From: a virus
Lineage: Duplodnaviria; Caudoviricetes
Direction: 5' to 3' (one strand)
Virus record (IMG/VR): IMGVR_UViG_3300044842_000325
Coordinates: 64,847 to 128,846 of that record
DNA length: 64,000 nt
A model generated the notes under the pieces. The model made no database searches and was not told where the DNA came from. It worked only from the letters and a program-made list of their open reading frames with translations. A program made the translations under genes and the position numbers. Shown here in pieces: positions 5,189-31,973 of the stretch; position 1 is the first letter of the stretch, and each line of letters begins with the position of its first letter.

Positions 5189-5404
5189 TTACTCCTTGGG
5201 TTCTTCGTGAATGGCGCAGATCACGCCGTTACCGCCGAATTCGTCCGTGATCTTGAATCCCGACGGGGGTGGATCGTCCGGGTACAGATTGAGCGGAAAC
5301 TGGTTCTGACCAAACTCTACCACGCGTTTCTCGTACGTCTTGAAACCGAACTTTCCGATCTCACTCGATTGGACTATGCCATCTTCTTGCACTACTTGAC
5401 TCAT
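5189..5404 (-). CDS. Small hypothetical protein
   Basis: 71 aa with a strong AAGGAG RBS. Confidence 0.6.
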   Translation of the reverse strand: MSQVVQEDGIVQSSEIGKFGFKTYEKRVVEFGQNQFPLNLYPDDPPPSGFKITDEFGGNGVICAIHEEPKE

Positions 5405-5436
5405 GTGTTACTCCTTTCCTCTAGGTATTACACAAA

Positions 5437-6957
5437 CTACGCAGCATCGGGCAGAGCCATCATTCGTTGGTAGATCACCGGGTCCACAGGCAGAGTAGGT
5501 GCCGCCTCGATGAAGTTCGCGGAGGTGGAAATCCACGGTTTGGTTTTCGACAGATTGCCCGACAGACTGCGCGGTACCGCGGTACTCATGGTGCTGCGGT
5601 ATGGTGCCATGGCTTCAAATCGTTCAGCCATGTAATCATCCATCAACAGCGTGAGGTTCATCTCGTCGCCATCGTAGTCAGCATTGAAGCCGCGCACGAT
5701 GAGGTCAGACAGCGAGATGGTTTGGTCAGCTGCATCTGGTTTGACTTTGGTGATGTACAGCAACTGCATCGAACCCAAGCCCAGCGAGGGATTACGCTGG
5801 AAGATCGCGGGCAGACCCCGCAGGCCCGAACCGGCAATCAACTCATGGCGCGATTCCGCGATCAATTCCTTGAACAGTTCGTCCAAGAACGGATTGTACT
5901 CGGTGGCATACCGGTTGAGGAAACGCCAGACCTCGTTGGGGAGCCAACCGCGGTCTTTCAGTTTACGCGCCAAATGCAAACGCAGCAAGCCCACGCCCAC
6001 GCCCCACGGGATGTGCAGTTCGCGGTGATAGTGCTGCACCGGCAGCTTGGTGATGACCGCCCGTGCCGACCAGTCGCACCGCGTGGCAGCCAAGTGCTTA
6101 CGGGAGATGCCCTCCTTCGACGAGAACGACTTCTTGTTGAACTCTTCGTAGTACGTGGCCATGTTGGCGATTGCCCGCACCACCCGGTTCTGTTTCACCG
6201 CATCGGTGTAGCCATTGAGCGGATCATCCAGACCGATCAGGGATTCGATCGCGTCGATTGCAATCGGCACGTTCGAGTCGACATACACCGCCATGTCCGT
6301 GTCTTCCACCACCAGCAGCAGCTTGTTGGGGAAAGCCAGACGTGACGAGAAGATCTTGCCGCGGTTCATCTGCAAGAACTTCAGGATGTGGTGCACCTCG
6401 TTCGGGTTGTCTTGCTTCTTCTTACGGAAGTCACTGATGGTGAGCAGCTTGACGATGATCTCGTCGAACTTGCGGAAGAAGTTGTTGTAGCCACGTTCGC
6501 GGTCAAGGCCGAGCGCCACCAACTGCGCATAGACCTTGGGTGGTTTGTCCGGCACCGGATACTTGGTGTCACACAACCATTGGATGATGTTAAATCGCCC
6601 TTTCTTGAAGTGATTCGACAGGATCGTCCAGACACGCGGATTGATCAGCGGCGCGACGTTACGGGGTTGCTTGAGCCACACCATCGATTCCAGTTTCTGG
6701 TCACGGATGTTGAGCACAGGCTTGTTACAGTTTTCGCAAATCACCCCGAGATATTTGCGACCACGAGTTTCGTTGCAATCGCAACGCGGTGTATTGGAGA
6801 GAACGTCGTTGGGCTGGTACCGGGTGAAGATCTTTTCTTTGAAAGCTTTCAGCGCATCTTTGGAGCAGTCCTGAAATTCGTTAATAATCACAGGGTCGCG
6901 ATGCGACAGCTGATTCCACAAATCGTCATGGCTGACGAGCCGTAGGTAAGTACCGAT
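5437..6957 (-). CDS. Non-virion RNA polymerase beta' subunit, catalytic part (phiKZ gp55-like)
   Basis: Catalytic NADYDGDEMN, QRNPSL, SARAVIT and zinc motif CDC...CENC. Directly follows chmA. Start probably the non-canonical ATC at 6957 (the ORF track gives TTG 6921). Confidence 0.92.
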   Translation of the reverse strand: MGTYLRLVSHDDLWNQLSHRDPVIINEFQDCSKDALKAFKEKIFTRYQPNDVLSNTPRCDCNETRGRKYLGVICENCNKPVLNIRDQKLESMVWLKQPRNVAPLINPRVWTILSNHFKKGRFNIIQWLCDTKYPVPDKPPKVYAQLVALGLDRERGYNNFFRKFDEIIVKLLTISDFRKKKQDNPNEVHHILKFLQMNRGKIFSSRLAFPNKLLLVVEDTDMAVYVDSNVPIAIDAIESLIGLDDPLNGYTDAVKQNRVVRAIANMATYYEEFNKKSFSSKEGISRKHLAATRCDWSARAVITKLPVQHYHRELHIPWGVGVGLLRLHLARKLKDRGWLPNEVWRFLNRYATEYNPFLDELFKELIAESRHELIAGSGLRGLPAIFQRNPSLGLGSMQLLYITKVKPDAADQTISLSDLIVRGFNADYDGDEMNLTLLMDDYMAERFEAMAPYRSTMSTAVPRSLSGNLSKTKPWISTSANFIEAAPTLPVDPVIYQRMMALPDAA

Positions 6958-11937: not shown

Positions 11938-14082
11938 TCAATAGTAGTCCATGGCCAGTTGGCTCAAGTCATCATGATTGAAATAGAATCCAATGGTTTC
12001 CAAAATCAAGTAAAACATTGCTGTTGCTTTTTGTACGATCTTGCGCACATCCACCGCCATCATGATCTCGTCCGGAATCCCTTTGGCAGAAACGATCGGC
12101 AAAGGGAGCTGCAATGACGTGATCTTATCGCGGTTATTCGTTTCTAGCCAACGGCGCATGGCTTTGGCAATGTCTTGGTCAGGCATCTTCTCCAGCCAGT
12201 TATTGGTCTTGGTTTTGCTATCCAATTCCAAACTGACATAGATCGCCTTGTAAGGTGGCGGCGGGATCATCCCATACTTTTGACCGAATACATCGTTCCA
12301 CATGCCGTACTGTTTATACGTCGAGGTTTCTTCGCCGTTCTTGTACGCTGCCGGGTCTTTTACGGTACTGAGTTTCAGGAATTTGAATTCCCCTTTACGG
12401 ATCGACTCAACGATACTGCGTTCCAGGTCAGCCACTTCCTTGACATACTTCATGGCGCTGATACTGCCTTTGGCCATGATGGTGTTCATGATGTCGAGCA
12501 TCATGTTCTCAGCCTGCGCAACAATCGCTTTTGGTGCATTGGAAGACTTGAGGTGAACCCCTTTGATTTCCTTCTTGAGTTCTTTCTTGATGTTACCTTC
12601 TTGGCAGCTGATCTGGGCAAAGTAGTGTTTACCGAGTTGGGTCAGAACAAACACGTCGAACTTGTATTCATTCTTCATTTCAATGGTAAACGCGTGATCC
12701 CGGCCAATCCCCACGTTGGCGGACATCTTGGCTAGAATGTGGATGATCGATTGCGATGCCAAAAAGATCATTGAAGCGCACACGGCGTCGTAGGTCGCAT
12801 CGAACTTGACTTGCTTGCAATACCAGAGAATCCAGTCTTGCGTGGTGAAGATGGTCGAGTCCGTGTCCGACACCAACACCACCCGGCGCAAGCTGTGTGG
12901 GAACATCGCGATCGAAGCAGGCACATTGTCCGTGGCCCAGAACGTACGAATCAGGTCGGCATACGCCCACATGACGTTGGCGATGTTTTCGGTTTGTGCT
13001 GCCACGATCGCGTAACCGACAGGATTATTCTTGATAATCTCGTCGATCGACTTGCCCTTGGTGATCTCGGGCTGGAGTTGCTTGGCTAAGTTGAAGAAGT
13101 CTTCGGGCCACTTTTTGATGGTTTCGGCGGGAGTGGGATCAGGTACATCCACCCGTTGAATAAGGCGTCCCATAAAAGTGCGTACAAAATCATCGTTGAA
13201 TTCCTTCAGTTGGTACATGTCACCCGTGTACACAAAGGCAGCACGTTGGATTGGCGTGAGATGATCGATCAAGTCACGGATCTTGGCGTACGACGGCTTA
13301 TGATTCCAATACAGCTTGGCCGAACGGTACACAACATTGAAGGTTTCTTCAGCGGTCGGGTAATGCAGGTTGTAACGGGTCATCACGTGCTCGACTGCCG
13401 CCATGTCGGTGTGGGCAATGATCGACACGATGTTGTTGCGCGTAATGTCATACGACCAGTAGTGACGATTACTGGCCAAGAAGCGTTCGTTGTTGGCATT
13501 CCCGTATGCCGAGGTTTGTCGACAAGAAGATGTGAGGGACGAGTGGCCGGTCTTGTTGGTGATCGGGTTGTGTTCACTCACCATGGCGCCCGACACGGCG
13601 TTGTTCGCCAACTTTTCCGTGGTTTGCTTACCACTGAAGAAGCGGTAGTTAAAGCTGCTCTCGCCCTCCTCTTGACCCGCTTTAAACATCGCTTTCTTTG
13701 CTACGCCACGCGACTTCACGTTGTCGTATTGGAATTTCGACAGAGGGGACAGGCGCACCTTGGGATTGTGATACGTAGTGAACGTGGGAGCGTAGATCTG
13801 TTCTTCCCCGAGGATCGTGCCGATGTATTCCGACATCGGGATCACCCCGTCTTCCCGGTCACCGGTATCGAAATCGCGTTCGAGGAACACGGCGTTGGGG
13901 TCTTGAATCGGGAACTCGCCGGTAGGGGAGAGTTGCTGCTTGACGAAGCGCATGGCTTCTTCGTACGAAATCCCGGCCATGATTTGCAGATGAGCTGCAT
14001 GTTGATGCATGGCGTGACGAATCGGGTTGATATCCCGTTTGTAATCTTCAGCTGGAGAAATAAACGGACTGTTCTTAGACAT
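11938..14082 (-). CDS. Family B DNA polymerase, polymerase domain (phiKZ gp50-like)
   Basis: Motifs SDTDST, KLANNAVSG and KGVHLK; 714 aa. No evident proofreading domain, consistent with the split PolB of phiKZ-like phages. Confidence 0.88.
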   Translation of the reverse strand: MSKNSPFISPAEDYKRDINPIRHAMHQHAAHLQIMAGISYEEAMRFVKQQLSPTGEFPIQDPNAVFLERDFDTGDREDGVIPMSEYIGTILGEEQIYAPTFTTYHNPKVRLSPLSKFQYDNVKSRGVAKKAMFKAGQEEGESSFNYRFFSGKQTTEKLANNAVSGAMVSEHNPITNKTGHSSLTSSCRQTSAYGNANNERFLASNRHYWSYDITRNNIVSIIAHTDMAAVEHVMTRYNLHYPTAEETFNVVYRSAKLYWNHKPSYAKIRDLIDHLTPIQRAAFVYTGDMYQLKEFNDDFVRTFMGRLIQRVDVPDPTPAETIKKWPEDFFNLAKQLQPEITKGKSIDEIIKNNPVGYAIVAAQTENIANVMWAYADLIRTFWATDNVPASIAMFPHSLRRVVLVSDTDSTIFTTQDWILWYCKQVKFDATYDAVCASMIFLASQSIIHILAKMSANVGIGRDHAFTIEMKNEYKFDVFVLTQLGKHYFAQISCQEGNIKKELKKEIKGVHLKSSNAPKAIVAQAENMMLDIMNTIMAKGSISAMKYVKEVADLERSIVESIRKGEFKFLKLSTVKDPAAYKNGEETSTYKQYGMWNDVFGQKYGMIPPPPYKAIYVSLELDSKTKTNNWLEKMPDQDIAKAMRRWLETNNRDKITSLQLPLPIVSAKGIPDEIMMAVDVRKIVQKATAMFYLILETIGFYFNHDDLSQLAMDYY

Positions 14083-14144
14083 GTTGGACCTGTTGTTCTG
14101 ACTCGACTACATGATGAGACAACACGATACAAAAAAAGAACTGA

Positions 14145-14185
14145 CGGCATAAAAACCATCCAAGAGCCCGAAGGCCCTTGGATGG
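14145..14185 (-). terminator. Hairpin + TTTTTATGCCG terminator closing the putative ncRNA
   Basis: CCATCCAAG...CTTGGATGG stem followed on the minus strand by TTTTTATGCCG. Confidence 0.65.
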
Positions 14186-14189
14186 GAAA

Positions 14190-14491
14190 GGTACAGCTTA
14201 GGATATCACATGGGTAAAACCCAACTTCACGACATGAGCAACGCCGTCGCGTTTCAAAGATCCAGTCTTGGTAGCGAGCACTCCCAGCCAACGGATCAAC
14301 CATCGGGAGGAAAGGAACCGATGGGATCGACATCCGCTGGGCCAATGCCCGCTCTCAAGTCGCGCCACCTCTACGCACCGTTTCTATGGACACTACAGCG
14401 TCGCTCATCGCACATCCCCTGTCGCATACAGGGGCACAACTTCCCCGCGGGCCAGGTCCCACGAAGCGCATGGAGCGTGCGCACTCCCTGC
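14190..14491 (-). ncRNA. Putative standalone structured ncRNA (~300 nt)
   Basis: No credible ORF. Promoter motif at 14491-14500 and terminator at 14145-14185. 18-bp closing stem 14234-14251/14391-14408 with G-U pairs on the minus strand, long inner stem 14267-14359, and extra hairpins. Confidence 0.55.
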
Positions 14492-14500
14492 ATTCAATAC
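14491..14500 (-). promoter_or_regulatory. Putative promoter motif GTATTGAATG
   Basis: Identical to 1317-1326. Confidence 0.5.
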
Positions 14501-14520
14501 GTATCCCGAATAAAAAAGGA

Positions 14521-14928
14521 TTACGATGCCGATTCGAAACTAATTGACTTCACCTGGAAACCATTGGCGGCCAAACAATCGAGCAGTTTTTGCTGACGGC
14601 TGCTGGACGAGTTATCGATCACGACGGTATGGCGACCGAGATTGACTGATTCCAGCGTGGCCGGGTTGATCCACTCCATTGCGATGATCTGCGTGGCGCC
14701 CGACGGCAGACGAATGCGCAGATACTTGTACTTGCTGGGATTGTTGACCGTGCTGCCCGGCAGACTTGGATACACCAGCGCATGTTGCGCTAGGATATCA
14801 AAACCCATCATCTGCGCGGTTTCGGCGTCGAAGATCGACATCACCAACGCGTTCTTAAAGTTCGTACCCAGCACGGCGACCGGGTACACACTGAACGAGT
14901 AAATACCACCAACCTCAATATCCATCAC
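14521..14928 (-). CDS. Conserved phiKZ-like protein (gp49-like)
   Basis: 135 aa, beta-rich, GGAG RBS, upstream of the DNA polymerase as in related phages. Confidence 0.7.
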   Translation of the reverse strand: MMDIEVGGIYSFSVYPVAVLGTNFKNALVMSIFDAETAQMMGFDILAQHALVYPSLPGSTVNNPSKYKYLRIRLPSGATQIIAMEWINPATLESVNLGRHTVVIDNSSSSRQQKLLDCLAANGFQVKSISFESAS

Positions 14929-14947
14929 TTGACTCCGTTAAAAGGAA

Positions 14948-15310
14948 TTAGTCCTTATAACGGCGCACGCACAGATCCCATCCTTGCATAGAAAAAGGGA
15001 AATACATCAATGCACCGTCGATATAAAAACCGCGGTGGCGAATGTCGTCCCAGATTGCCACCATCAGGTGGTAAGCTAAACGATCGGTCGCTTCGCGGTC
15101 CACTCTCAGATGATTGGCAAAGATGAAGTTCTCGTACGTCAAAATGTTGCGGTCGTACATGTCCAGCGGGGTGTGCTGATCGAGAATGAAGAAGATCTGT
15201 TTGAAGAGTTCTAACCGATCTTCTTCTTGTAGCGTGTAACCAAAGCCCGCTTCAAAATCCATCAACATGTGCATGGTGTCGATGATGGTGACGTGGTGTA
15301 GAGTTACCAT
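14948..15310 (-). CDS. Hypothetical protein, diverged-array member
   Basis: 120 aa, GGAG RBS, tightly packed operon. Confidence 0.65.
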   Translation of the reverse strand: MVTLHHVTIIDTMHMLMDFEAGFGYTLQEEDRLELFKQIFFILDQHTPLDMYDRNILTYENFIFANHLRVDREATDRLAYHLMVAIWDDIRHRGFYIDGALMYFPFSMQGWDLCVRRYKD

Positions 15311-15312
15311 AG

Positions 15313-15951
15313 TTACTCCGAAATGAAATCGAGCCCCCTTAGTGGATCAGGAGCGTCGTCATCGAGCGCAACAATAGCACAATCATCTTGCCACCCCACG
15401 TAGTGATACGGGAAGCGGCCATGCTTGTACATGCCGTACTCGACCAAACGTTGATAGAGTTGTTTCCCGAACTGCGTAGCGAGAGTAGCGATTTTACGAC
15501 GGGTGTTGGAAATGGCCGCGGCCACATGCGGTCCTGGGATATTCGACTGCAACTGAATATCAGCCATGTGGGCGACGTCGATCCACAGCATGCCCATGGC
15601 CAGATCAAGATCTTCGTTGATTTCTTTTTTGGTCTTGATGTTTTCAATGGCGGCCGCGATGATCAGGCTGATGTCGGGATGCCAGCTCGTACTTTGTTCC
15701 GAGACGTGCTTTTTCATGAACGTCTGCTTAAAGACCGAACCGTCATCTGCGATGGTGTACACCTCCGGAAACACGATGTTGGCATCGATTGGATGATTCA
15801 TGATTTCCGTATTGATCATGTTATCCCACTGCGCGACAAAGTTACGAACAATGTCGCCAATGTTAAGGATGTAATAATCCGGGTACTTCGGGCCTAGGAC
15901 CGGGACCGGATACCGTTCATTAACGGATTCGTTGTAAGATGTAAGTTTCAT
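15313..15951 (-). CDS. Hypothetical protein, diverged-array member
   Basis: Start trimmed to ATG 15951 because the ORF-track extension overlaps the neighbour. C-terminal LYQRLVEYGMYKHGRFPY. Confidence 0.6.
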   Translation of the reverse strand: MKLTSYNESVNERYPVPVLGPKYPDYYILNIGDIVRNFVAQWDNMINTEIMNHPIDANIVFPEVYTIADDGSVFKQTFMKKHVSEQSTSWHPDISLIIAAAIENIKTKKEINEDLDLAMGMLWIDVAHMADIQLQSNIPGPHVAAAISNTRRKIATLATQFGKQLYQRLVEYGMYKHGRFPYHYVGWQDDCAIVALDDDAPDPLRGLDFISE

Positions 15952-16330
15952 AATCAATAGACTGTGAGACAACTTTGTAACGCTCATAACCGGTATTGAG
16001 CATCCCCAAACTCTTGAGATGTTGATAAGCCCGTATCCCAAAGCCATGCAGATACGAACGTAGTCGACCATCCAATTCGATCTTCTCTTGTTTGGCCCGC
16101 GCGGCGGTGGTGTAAACAAACTCCACCTTCGCGTACAAATAATCATGGGCTAACATATCACTGATGATCCGATCGAGATGGATCAGCGGCTCGACATGCT
16201 CAAACATCTCCAGCAGACGCCACTTCACTTGATCAGTATCGATCGTGGGCAGGTCGCTCTTGGTCAGTTGCCGTTGAAGGATCGCACTGGCCTCAGAGAA
16301 ATTAACGATGTATTCTTCACCTACGGCCAT
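15920..16330 (-). CDS. Hypothetical protein, diverged-array member
   Basis: 136 aa, AGGAG RBS. Confidence 0.65.
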   Translation of the reverse strand: MAVGEEYIVNFSEASAILQRQLTKSDLPTIDTDQVKWRLLEMFEHVEPLIHLDRIISDMLAHDYLYAKVEFVYTTAARAKQEKIELDGRLRSYLHGFGIRAYQHLKSLGMLNTGYERYKVVSQSIDYETYILQRIR

Positions 16331-31101: not shown

Positions 31102-31908
31102 TTAACCTTTCTTATCAATGGCGCGCTGAGAATAAGCGCAGCCGTTGAGAAATTCACGCAGATTGATAGCGTTGTCGTCGCTTCTGTTGTTGGTAAACCA
31201 GACTGGTTTGTGACCGAACCACTCCGAGTCCGAGAAAGCATAGGACTCTTCGTTGAACTTGATGGCTTCTTCGGAGAGTTGGACATTTTCGAAGATGACC
31301 CAGCCGTCCTTGGCGTCGCCGATCATGTCGATCACGGGCTGGACGAATTCCTGTTGCCGCTTGACTTGAGCCAGCATCCTTTCCAGATCCGCTTGTGGTG
31401 TCTTCTCACCGCAATCCATGATGAAACCGCCATTCTCTTTGGCCTTGGCGATGTCGCGTTCCAGACTAGCGATGTAGTCGAACCCGTCACGGATAGTGTC
31501 TTGCACTTCCGACAGGTTGTAATCGAAATAGGGCTGTTCGAAACGTGGGGTAGCTTGATATTCCTCGTACGCTTTGAGGAAGTCTGCCGAGTTCAAGGCA
31601 GGTTTGCTCGCAGTATGCGGGAATCCGCGCAGCGACTGGAGTCGTTCACGGATCGTGTTGTTGATTTCGTCAAAGCGTTCTTGACTCAGGTCGAAGCGGA
31701 TTTTGTCAACTTCACTGAGTGGCGCCATTAACAGATCTGCCGCCATCCATTCGTTGTTGTGCTTGACGCGCCGGTCAGCGCAGGTGAGCGGTGGCGGGTC
31801 CATGTGGATGCCAGACAAATCGCTTTGTTGCAAAGGACGGACCCCGTACCACAGGCCGCCTTCAAATTTAACGATTGCGCAGTGACGTTCATCAAGTTCG
31901 TAGATCAT
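31102..31908 (-). CDS. Hypothetical early protein
   Basis: 268 aa, AAGGA RBS with the shared leader, downstream of an early promoter. Confidence 0.7.
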   Translation of the reverse strand: MIYELDERHCAIVKFEGGLWYGVRPLQQSDLSGIHMDPPPLTCADRRVKHNNEWMAADLLMAPLSEVDKIRFDLSQERFDEINNTIRERLQSLRGFPHTASKPALNSADFLKAYEEYQATPRFEQPYFDYNLSEVQDTIRDGFDYIASLERDIAKAKENGGFIMDCGEKTPQADLERMLAQVKRQQEFVQPVIDMIGDAKDGWVIFENVQLSEEAIKFNEESYAFSDSEWFGHKPVWFTNNRSDDNAINLREFLNGCAYSQRAIDKKG

Positions 31909-31973
31909 GGTGATATCCTTAAGTTAGTTGTTGGTTGTAAAGAGTTTCATGGCGAGCCCAATTGACTCTGTCT

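Follow-up and report, generated by a model that had tools for sequence, protein, structure and literature searches.

A conserved structured RNA gene next to the DNA polymerase gene of a nucleus-forming jumbo phage: a candidate trans-acting antisense RNA

The locus considered here raises the question of what is kept in the 438-nt spacer that separates two neighbouring genes of an uncultured phiKZ-like (nucleus-forming) jumbo phage. The window, which is the whole 64,000-nt stretch of DNA that was analysed, belongs to a contig of 128.8 kb, and the genes of the region lie on the minus strand. Downstream of the spacer, ORF 11938-14082, with its start codon at 14082, encodes a divergent family-B DNA polymerase (PF20286, E 2e-234), and upstream of it ORF 14521-14928 encodes PF20287, an SH3-fold protein (SH3DP) that accompanies such polymerases. 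The gap is occupied by a conserved gene for a structured non-coding RNA of the minus strand, which is single-copy in the 128.8-kb contig and represents a family found neither in Rfam nor in the literature searched, where no RNA of the SH3DP-polymerase spacer was found described.

In nucleus-forming jumbo phages, mRNAs leave a protein shell and are translated in the cytoplasm. To our knowledge, the post-transcriptional timing of gene classes in these phages is an open question; we know of very few trans-acting regulatory RNAs in virulent phages, and of none characterised in the nucleus-forming jumbo phages. The reading favoured here, to which we give roughly even chances, is that the RNA would act in trans as an antisense RNA and block the translation of a set of phage mRNAs.

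A folded and conserved minus-strand RNA

Using the polymerase protein as a query, five IMG/VR contigs (L003-L007) were retrieved whose polymerases are 82-91% identical. Their spacers are just 65-70% identical to that of the window, a level of divergence that is ideal for testing a fold, and the window together with L003-L007 formed the six-sequence set used for covariation. Searches beyond this set were negative: the spacer DNA had no blastn match among 50,697 phage records, a pattern scan of IMG/VR with two conserved boxes returned the same five relatives and chance matches, and a metagenome scan found no relative beyond those already known. Likewise, Rfam covariance models, run on positions 13000-16000 at E<=10 and on the whole window at gathering scores, matched no family, and ARAGORN found neither a tRNA nor a tmRNA.

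The predicted minus-strand fold has an energy of -167 kcal/mol, compared with -134.7 +/- 5.5 in dinucleotide shuffles (z -5.9), and the plus strand reaches a z of -3.2 only. RNAalifold analysis of the six sequences produced 79 pairs, 41 of them changed on both sides. Pair statistics were computed on a 73-pair structure from which long-range pairs had been removed. In this structure 94% of the cells are able to pair, against 79.7% in column shuffles, none of which (0/500) reached the observed value, and 36-43% when partners were slid. Changes on both sides affect 40 of the 73 pairs, and 5-10 after sliding. Since G-U cells are far more numerous than A-C cells (61 vs 7 in the six sequences), the folded molecule is the minus-strand transcript, as an earlier sequence-only reading of the window had concluded from the G-U pairs. 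That reading had also proposed several ways of examining such an RNA. Two of them, folding against shuffled sequence and covariation in relatives, came out in its favour; another, an Infernal/Rfam scan, identified no family, 6S included, even at the permissive threshold given above.

In the body of the RNA, three 5' hairpins precede a 16-bp closing stem that encloses a three-way junction (Table 1). The closing stem, terminal arm, extra hairpins, promoter motif and terminator named by the sequence-only reading are all present where it had placed them, with a correction for the hairpins: the one at 14416-14434 was right, the second, put at about 14466-14482, actually lies at 14472-14487, and a third (14443-14466) had been missed. 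The loop region of H2, GGACCUGGC, is invariant, and its loop (14452-14457) has an unpaired probability of 0.98. That of P6, AGAGGUG (14366-14372), is purine-rich and similarly exposed (0.96). The long arm P7 ends in an apical stem CCATCGG/CCGATGG (14300-14306 / 14318-14324) and contains an invariant GAUC:GAUC helix, with the boxes GUCGAUCC (14323-14330) and UUGAUCCG (14292-14299); its lower part was excluded from the pair counts because the alignment is not good enough there. The loops of P6 (AGAGGUG/AAGGUG) and P7 could form a kissing contact in 6/6 sequences (4-7 bp), the loop alignment being too loose for counts of covariation. Many nucleotides of H2, H3, P6 and the GAUC helix do not vary at all, and a pure base-pairing role leaves them unexplained.

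Table 1. Features of the RNA gene and its candidate targets, in coordinates of the window.
Feature	Position	Strand	Remarks
Predicted RNA, about 340 nt	14150-14490	minus	promoter to terminator U-tract; predicted ends
T-run upstream of promoter core	14512-14517	minus	invariant in six sequences
Promoter core TATTGAATGCAG	14488-14499	minus	conserved in A1
Hairpin H1	14472-14487	minus	helix 1; 3/5 pairs change on both sides
Hairpin H2	14443-14466	minus	helix 2; 4/9 pairs change on both sides
Hairpin H3, CUGU(A/U)UGCG(A/G)C(A/G)G	14416-14434	minus	helix 4; sequence mostly invariant
Closing stem P4	14391-14408 (5') with 14234-14251 (3')	minus	helix 5; 12/16 pairs change on both sides
Helix P5	14380-14389 with 14254-14263	minus	helix 6; 6/9 pairs change on both sides
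Hairpin P6, one branch of three-way junction	14362-14376	minus	helix 7
Long arm P7	14264-14360	minus	helix 8; long arm folds in every homologue
P7 apical loop UUCCUUUCCUC, 11 nt, pyrimidine-rich, anti-Shine-Dalgarno-like	14307-14317	minus	unpaired probability 1.0
3' tail, single-stranded, with anti-leader box GUGAUAUCC(U) at 14200-14209	14190-14213	minus	flanks CAUG, AAGCUGUAC
Intrinsic terminator and ATGCC box	14146-14185	minus	hairpin 14156-14185: 13-bp stem, UUCG loop, U5
Second promoter-like motif, T-run ... CATCATGTAG	14107-14137	minus	conserved in six sequences
Candidate target, RBS GAGGAAAGGAG of 71-codon gene 5189-5404	5411-5421	minus	loop complementarity
Candidate target, leader and start region CAACUAACUUAAGGAUAUCACCAUG of 268-codon gene 31102-31908	31906-31931	minus	tail complementarity

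The architecture does not resemble that of 6S RNA, to which the core had been likened on account of a seemingly asymmetric central region. No 6S model matched at E<=10, and the centre proved to be no open bubble but the P5 helix, which runs into a three-way junction from which the covariation-supported P6 branches. An unbranched 6S-type rod with a central bubble is thus ruled out, P6 and P7 both being kept in the six sequences. What is shared with 6S RNA (RF00013) and Ms1 is a similar core size and a long closing stem around a non-helical centre. In contrast to these RNAs, the phage RNA has a three-way junction instead of an open-promoter-like bubble, carries extra 5' hairpins and a functional-looking tail, and has no link to RNA polymerase, nothing having been found that points to RNA polymerase binding.

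Both ends of the RNA gene display recognizable signals. The promoter core is credible: a near-identical motif, TATTGAATGTAG, is found at 1314-1325, 38 nt before the start codon of gene 498-1283, which we take to be chmC (a name accepted as given), and tATTGTATGyAG-like motifs open the equivalent spacers in many other clades. The core presumably also resembles the TATG-type promoters of the phiKZ non-virion RNA polymerase, and transcription would probably start at or just past it. At the other end, 9 of the 12 pairs of the terminator (helix 9) change on both sides, and a hairpin followed by TTATGCC(G) recurs within the genome as well as in other clades. Covariation is free in the terminator stems, and the loops upstream stay invariant. 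The second promoter-like motif sits between this terminator and the polymerase start codon. For the polymerase gene, a leader of the riboswitch or attenuator kind appears improbable: no terminator-competing structure was found, and a search of the RNA for a further copy of the terminator 3' arm (<=3 mismatches in 12) gave none. Based on the promoter core shared with chmC, the covarying terminator, the second promoter-like motif and the missing antiterminator copy, we infer that the RNA forms its own transcription unit. The proposal of a standalone, probably regulatory structured RNA is supported by covariation, the chmC-type promoter and the conserved terminator, as well as by complementarity to phage ribosome-binding regions.

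Complementarity to ribosome-binding regions of phage genes

The 3' tail has the form CAUG-GUGAUAUCC-(N3)-G(C/U)UGUA and mirrors a leader of the type ACAAC-(N3-6)-GGAUAUCAC-(C)-AUG. The window, L006 and L007 share the same 9-mer between variable flanks; in the single-sequence ensemble the tail of the window is unpaired at 0.29 only. Over all its 10 nt, the box GUGAUAUCCU (14209-14200) forms a perfect Watson-Crick match to AGGAUAUCAC, which lies in the start region of gene 31102-31908, and 0/500 shuffles of this box reach 10 nt at any of ~130 start regions, a figure that is optimistic, like the other shuffle p-values, because boxes were picked after inspection of the data. The predicted duplex between the tail and this gene comprises 13 pairs with one bulge (-15.7 kcal/mol), making it the best among 129 predicted start regions, followed by one at -12.6. 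A start-region complement of the tail box occurs at one gene in the window's partial contig. Other leaders of the window, ...GGAAAUCACC-AUG, ...GGAGGAAUCACC-AUG and ...GGGAUCACC-AUG, form duplexes of -10 to -14 kcal/mol with the tail, and the L006 counterpart closest to gene 31102-31908 has GGAUACAC, an imperfect site with 8 bp and a bulge.

The two sister genomes sharing the 9-mer extend this observation to a gene set. The L006 genome (272 kb) contains the motif GGATATCAC 11 times and the L007 genome (226 kb) 10 times, compared with ~2 expected and none for the reversed control, and the occurrences of the motif share the strand bias of the genes. In the form GGAUAUCAC(C/A)AUG, it is found at start codons behind A/C-rich leaders at 7 sites in L006 and 5 sites in L007; the rest of the 21 occurrences are located near leader 5' ends (2), in the RNA genes (2) or elsewhere (5). 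All of the leaders (12/12) pair with the tail of their own phage in three blocks, at -19 to -23 kcal/mol. These blocks join CAUG with C+AUG, GUGAUAUCC with GGAUAUCAC, and GUUGU with ACAAC/AUAAC, so that the start codon, the Shine-Dalgarno sequence and spacer, and the A/C-rich leader are each covered. In the L004 genome (subclade B), where the box of the RNA differs (GUGAAUCCCC), the leader motif is present at a single place, which is no start codon, and no enrichment was seen for the complement of the L004 box. The candidate target genes match no family in Pfam or PHROGs. Because the tail mirrors the leader, a leader-like sequence with an ATG can be recognized on the plus strand of the RNA gene in the window and in L006, and not in L007; the tail box could thus also be the relic of an inverted (antisense) gene start, instead of a selected antisense element.

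The second element is the apical loop of P7, and its signal is weaker than that of the tail. Its candidate target is the ribosome-binding site of gene 5189-5404 ("mini-beta"), presumably a fragment of the RNA polymerase beta subunit, just downstream of ORF 5437-6921, which we take to be a phage RNA polymerase subunit gene. When the 128.8-kb contig was searched by k-mers, the loop complement gave a single 10-mer outside the RNA gene, at GAGGAAAGGAG, 6 nt before the mini-beta start codon. Complementarity extends to 11/11 positions (10 Watson-Crick, 1 G-U), the best loop match in the contig, and among composition-matched shuffles of the loop, 2.5% achieve an 11-nt match to one or another start region (p about 0.025-0.03). 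Related apical loops are found in 6/6 sequences of the window's clade; those of L006, L007 and L004 read UUACUUUCCUCU, UUCAUUUCCUUA and UUUUACCUUUUUG, and the orthologous mini-beta sites AAGGAAAGGAG (L006, L007) and CAAAAAGGAG (L004). Loop and site differ together between the subclades (UUUCCUC with GGAAAGG vs CCUUUUUG with CAAAAAGG), and pairs within a subclade have energies of -8.6 to -16.6 kcal/mol, compared with -4.7 to -7.8 for crossed pairs. This co-variation, which is a single evolutionary split, is suggestive of mini-beta being a target. CU-rich loops fit any strong Shine-Dalgarno sequence.

In the mechanism that these complementarities bring to mind, the RNA would be transcribed from the chmC-type phage promoter and end at the conserved intrinsic terminator, and its folded body would present two unpaired antisense elements, the 3' tail and the 11-nt CU-rich apical loop. 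The tail would pair in trans with the leader ACAAC..GGAUAUCACC-AUG of a set of putatively early genes, and the loop with a small gene of the RNA polymerase cluster, at its purine-rich ribosome-binding site. Pairing would cover the Shine-Dalgarno sequence and the start codon, translation of the paired mRNAs would fall, and the RNA would be a phage-made repressor of this gene set; the pairing and its repressive effect are what we infer from the shape of the molecule and its matches. Such an RNA would also explain why a set of genes has a stereotyped leader, and an RNA mirroring a shared leader is a concrete and testable candidate for translational class switching. A bolder version of this proposal is tentative and, in our opinion, rather doubtful: a master antisense RNA of a nucleus-forming jumbo phage, made by the phage's own polymerase, would silence at the level of translation both the leader-bearing (probably early) genes and the ribosome site in the RNA polymerase cluster, with fast-evolving equivalents at the SH3DP-polymerase site throughout a broad clade of chimalliviruses, the cultured phages FLC9 and RP12/RP31 among them.

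Likeness to known regulatory RNAs and proteins

In its logic, the putative regulator comes closest to RNAs of the RNAIII and P1 c4 types and to T4 RegA. As in Staphylococcus aureus RNAIII (RF00503) and sRNAs of the RsaE/RoxS type, pyrimidine-rich loops are exposed that would face the Shine-Dalgarno regions of several mRNAs, and with RNAIII it would also share the format of a long multi-hairpin regulatory RNA bearing several antisense elements on one scaffold. In contrast to the RNAIII/RsaE type, it is phage-encoded and devoid of a coding part, shows no sequence or covariance-model similarity (Rfam), and its main antisense element would be the single-stranded 3' tail, in which a leader is mirrored in full, from the A/C-rich tract through the Shine-Dalgarno sequence and spacer to the start codon.

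Phage-made RNAs pairing with the ribosome-binding region of phage mRNAs are exemplified by the c4 RNA of P1/P7 and the sar RNA of P22. The c4 RNA pairs through two short blocks and translation is blocked. Both c4 and sar are RNAs of 70-80 nt that act on one operon each, in the immunity circuits of temperate phages. The present RNA likewise has a segment that is the complement of the Shine-Dalgarno sequence and start region in its candidate targets, but it is ~340 nt long, highly structured and encoded by a virulent nucleus-forming phage, and the leader it mirrors belongs to 5-7 or more genes.

T4 RegA is a protein repressor and RegB a GGAG-specific endonuclease. The proposal made here has in common with them that a later-made phage factor would shut off the translation of earlier mRNAs through their ribosome-binding regions; in contrast to these proteins, the agent would be a base-pairing RNA. 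If true, the master antisense RNA would be the RNA counterpart of RegA/RegB.

Among chimalliviruses, sRNA candidates of phiKZ and 201phi2-1 were reported in which a phage promoter is closely followed by a phage-type terminator, one of them being kept by position across genera; they are shorter than 250 nt, lie at other loci, e.g. before the tail gene gp182/gp277, and neither covariation nor targets were reported for them (PMC10914365, PMC11512511, PMC8244752). The RNA described here is likewise bounded by a phage promoter and a terminator, but it differs in its locus (PMC11512511), and the phiKZ spacer before polymerase gp50 measures ~200 nt and has no match to R1, a covariance model built from the core of the present RNA.

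Spacers of other jumbo phages and competing readings

The SH3DP-polymerase spacer is 400-860 nt long in a broad clade comprising Burkholderia phage FLC9, ~30 IMG/VR lineages and Ralstonia RP12/RP31, where an RNA-like gap is located one gene further upstream. It measures 100-210 nt in phiKZ, Xoo-sp14, pEa_SNUABM_54 and FLC6. Among 36 loci searched with an nhmmer profile of the six sequences and with R1, the matches are confined to the six close relatives; FLC9, RP31 and phiKZ (locus L071) were found by neither. Long spacers nonetheless fold well (z -4.3 in FLC9, -4.7 in RP31), six sequences of the FLC9 clade have 25 covarying pairs, and the long spacers of other clades have the same promoter type at the start and a hairpin with TTATGCCG at the end. 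A CU-rich hairpin loop (UCCU, CCUU or CCUC) is present in 19 of 25 independent lineages, compared with 3.25 expected from dinucleotide shuffles. The complement of the invariant FLC9-clade box UUGUAACGACCUG is not recurrent in the FLC9 or L080 genomes. As R1 and the nhmmer profile give no match beyond the six sequences, homology across clades would be read from position, promoter, terminator and CU-rich loop only, the picture being that of a fast-evolving RNA gene kept at one site. Analogous RNAs in the cultured phages FLC9 and RP12/RP31 open the idea to experiment.

The strongest competitor of the trans-acting antisense reading, somewhat improbable in our view, is a protein-binding scaffold or decoy, with the phage RNA polymerase (6S-like), SH3DP, the DNA polymerase, ChmC or some factor of the host as its partner; the matches to ribosome sites would then be incidental. 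It draws on the invariant unpaired or junction nucleotides (GGACCUGGC, CUGUAUGCGAC, GUAGAGGUGGCGCGA and UGAnA) and on the GAUC:GAUC helix, which remains invariant amid covarying helices; such invariance is typically seen in RNAs that adopt a tertiary structure or bind proteins. The invariant nucleotides beyond the two antisense elements suggest either of these, a tertiary fold or a protein partner, and the SH3DP-RNA-polymerase synteny is strict across the broad clade. However, Rfam yields no match to 6S or another ribonucleoprotein RNA, and the core is branched and without a bubble. SH3DP and the polymerase are also encoded by phages with spacers of 100-210 nt (phiKZ, Xoo-sp14, FLC6), so these proteins do not need the RNA. 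A scaffold would, moreover, leave unexplained a tail that mirrors a leader recurring 12-fold.

Less probable still is a function in cis, either as a structured 3' UTR of the SH3DP operon or as an attenuating polymerase leader with terminator read-through. The RNA gene directly adjoins both neighbours on the same strand, and in the leader form the polymerase ribosome site would be the target of the anti-Shine-Dalgarno loop. In 9 of 17 other clades the polymerase start region is indeed the best local partner of the CU-rich loop, e.g. UUCCCCCCUUU with AAAGGGGA in L109 and AGUUUCCUU with AAGGAAACU in L121, and in the FLC9 clade RNAalifold pairs this loop with the polymerase AGGAG. In the window's clade, by contrast, the polymerase start region is a poor partner in most members and ranks 5th-11th of 7-14 in the four where it fits least, one conserved promoter motif stands at the start of the RNA and a second separates its terminator from the polymerase gene, and the terminator is strong, conserved and without a competing antiterminator. 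Duplex predictions between the whole RNA and the polymerase leader were uninformative.

A replication-origin transcript, that is, a structured pre-primer like ColE1 RNA II or those of T4 R-loop origins, appears very improbable: the RNA gene does adjoin the DNA polymerase gene, but it ends at a conserved and efficient-looking terminator, no GC-skew turn was found at the site, and no RNA segment was found to co-vary with the downstream DNA. Membership in the ColE1 RNA II type was rejected on the first two of these grounds.

Coding potential was compared in six frames over the six spacers, with short, frame-shifting similarities as the only outcome and no shared ORF. The sequence-only reading had excluded any ORF led by a ribosome-binding site, which overlooks ORF 14210-14596 of the plus strand. 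That this ORF is a protein gene, or the spacer a DNA-level element, instead of an RNA gene, is scarcely credible, given that its 128 codons and phage-typical start region AGGATATCAC-ATG are set against ~16 codons in L006, the loss of the ATG in L007, indels that are not multiples of three, similar stretches that shift frame, and a strand-specific covariation that fits a minus-strand RNA.

Spacers between the SH3DP and DNA polymerase genes

Among chimalliviruses, the spacer separating the SH3DP and polymerase genes ranges in length from 3 to 860 nt. Long spacers are structured, with a promoter motif at the start and a terminator at the end, and most of them also carry a hairpin with a CU-rich loop. 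In RP12/RP31, the RNA-like gap is displaced one gene further upstream. Two complementarities to the polymerase leader were identified in the FLC9 clade: an invariant box, UUGUAACGACCUG, located upstream of the terminator, complements UAGGUCGACA in this leader, and the first CU-rich loop complements the polymerase AGGAG. Because the boxes, the loop and AGGAG are all invariant within the clade, covariation is unreadable for these pairings.

Promoter and terminator motifs

The promoter core of the RNA gene is identical in type to that of gene 498-1283, where the motif TATTGAATGTAG lies 38 nt upstream of the start codon. This common core suggests that both genes belong to one temporal class. Terminator hairpins are followed by a conserved T-run and ATGCC(G) box, which is kept across distant chimallivirus clades, including those that are AT-rich, and takes the form TTTTATGTTG in phiKZ. 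This arrangement probably corresponds to the conserved motif that has been reported at terminators of phiKZ and 201phi2-1.

Location of the sequence features (window coordinates unless a locus of another phage, L, or the FLC9-clade spacer alignment, A2, is named)
Feature	Location	Strand	Remarks
RNA-like spacer or gap	FLC9 L001:2456-2991; RP31 L002:2016-2452; L075-L133 spacers
Complementary elements, FLC9 clade	A2 columns 466-477 and 569-578; L001 ~2895-2910 and ~2965-2975
Motif TATTGAATGTAG, gene 498-1283	1314-1325	-
Terminator hairpin, T-run and ATGCC(G) box	14146-14185, ~18588, ~33531
Same, other phages	Spacers of L071-L133
Stereotyped start region	31906-31931	-	One gene of the window
Same, L006 genome	L149, L159, L166-L170		At least 7 genes of unknown function
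Same, L007 genome	L150, L152, L172-L174		At least 5 such genes
Antisense ORF	14210-14596	+	128 codons, led by AGGATATCAC-ATG
(A/G)GUGUG linker	14410-14415; equivalent H3-P4 linkers of L003-L007

Start regions, antisense ORF and mini-beta gene

In the window and in two sister genomes (L006 and L007), a stereotyped translation start region was recognized, in which an A/C-rich tract (AACCAACAAC or AAUAAC) leads to (A)AGGAUAUCAC(C)AUG. Its 9-mer, part of the sequence to which the 3' tail of the RNA gene is antisense, shows a ~5-fold excess and a strand bias.

An antisense ORF covers the RNA in full, as well as the end of SH3DP, but is not conserved in relatives.

By eye, the conserved linker between hairpin H3 and closing stem P4 of the RNA complements CACAC/AACAC just upstream of the start codon of mini-beta, a 71-codon RNA-polymerase-beta-like gene, in several phages. 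In other clades (the FLC9, L080, L104 and L095 genomes; L141-L144), the 494-aa RNA polymerase subunit is followed, instead of mini-beta, by a ~200-aa gene, which starts 13-24 nt past the stop codon with a strong GAGGAGG or AAAGGAGG site ahead.
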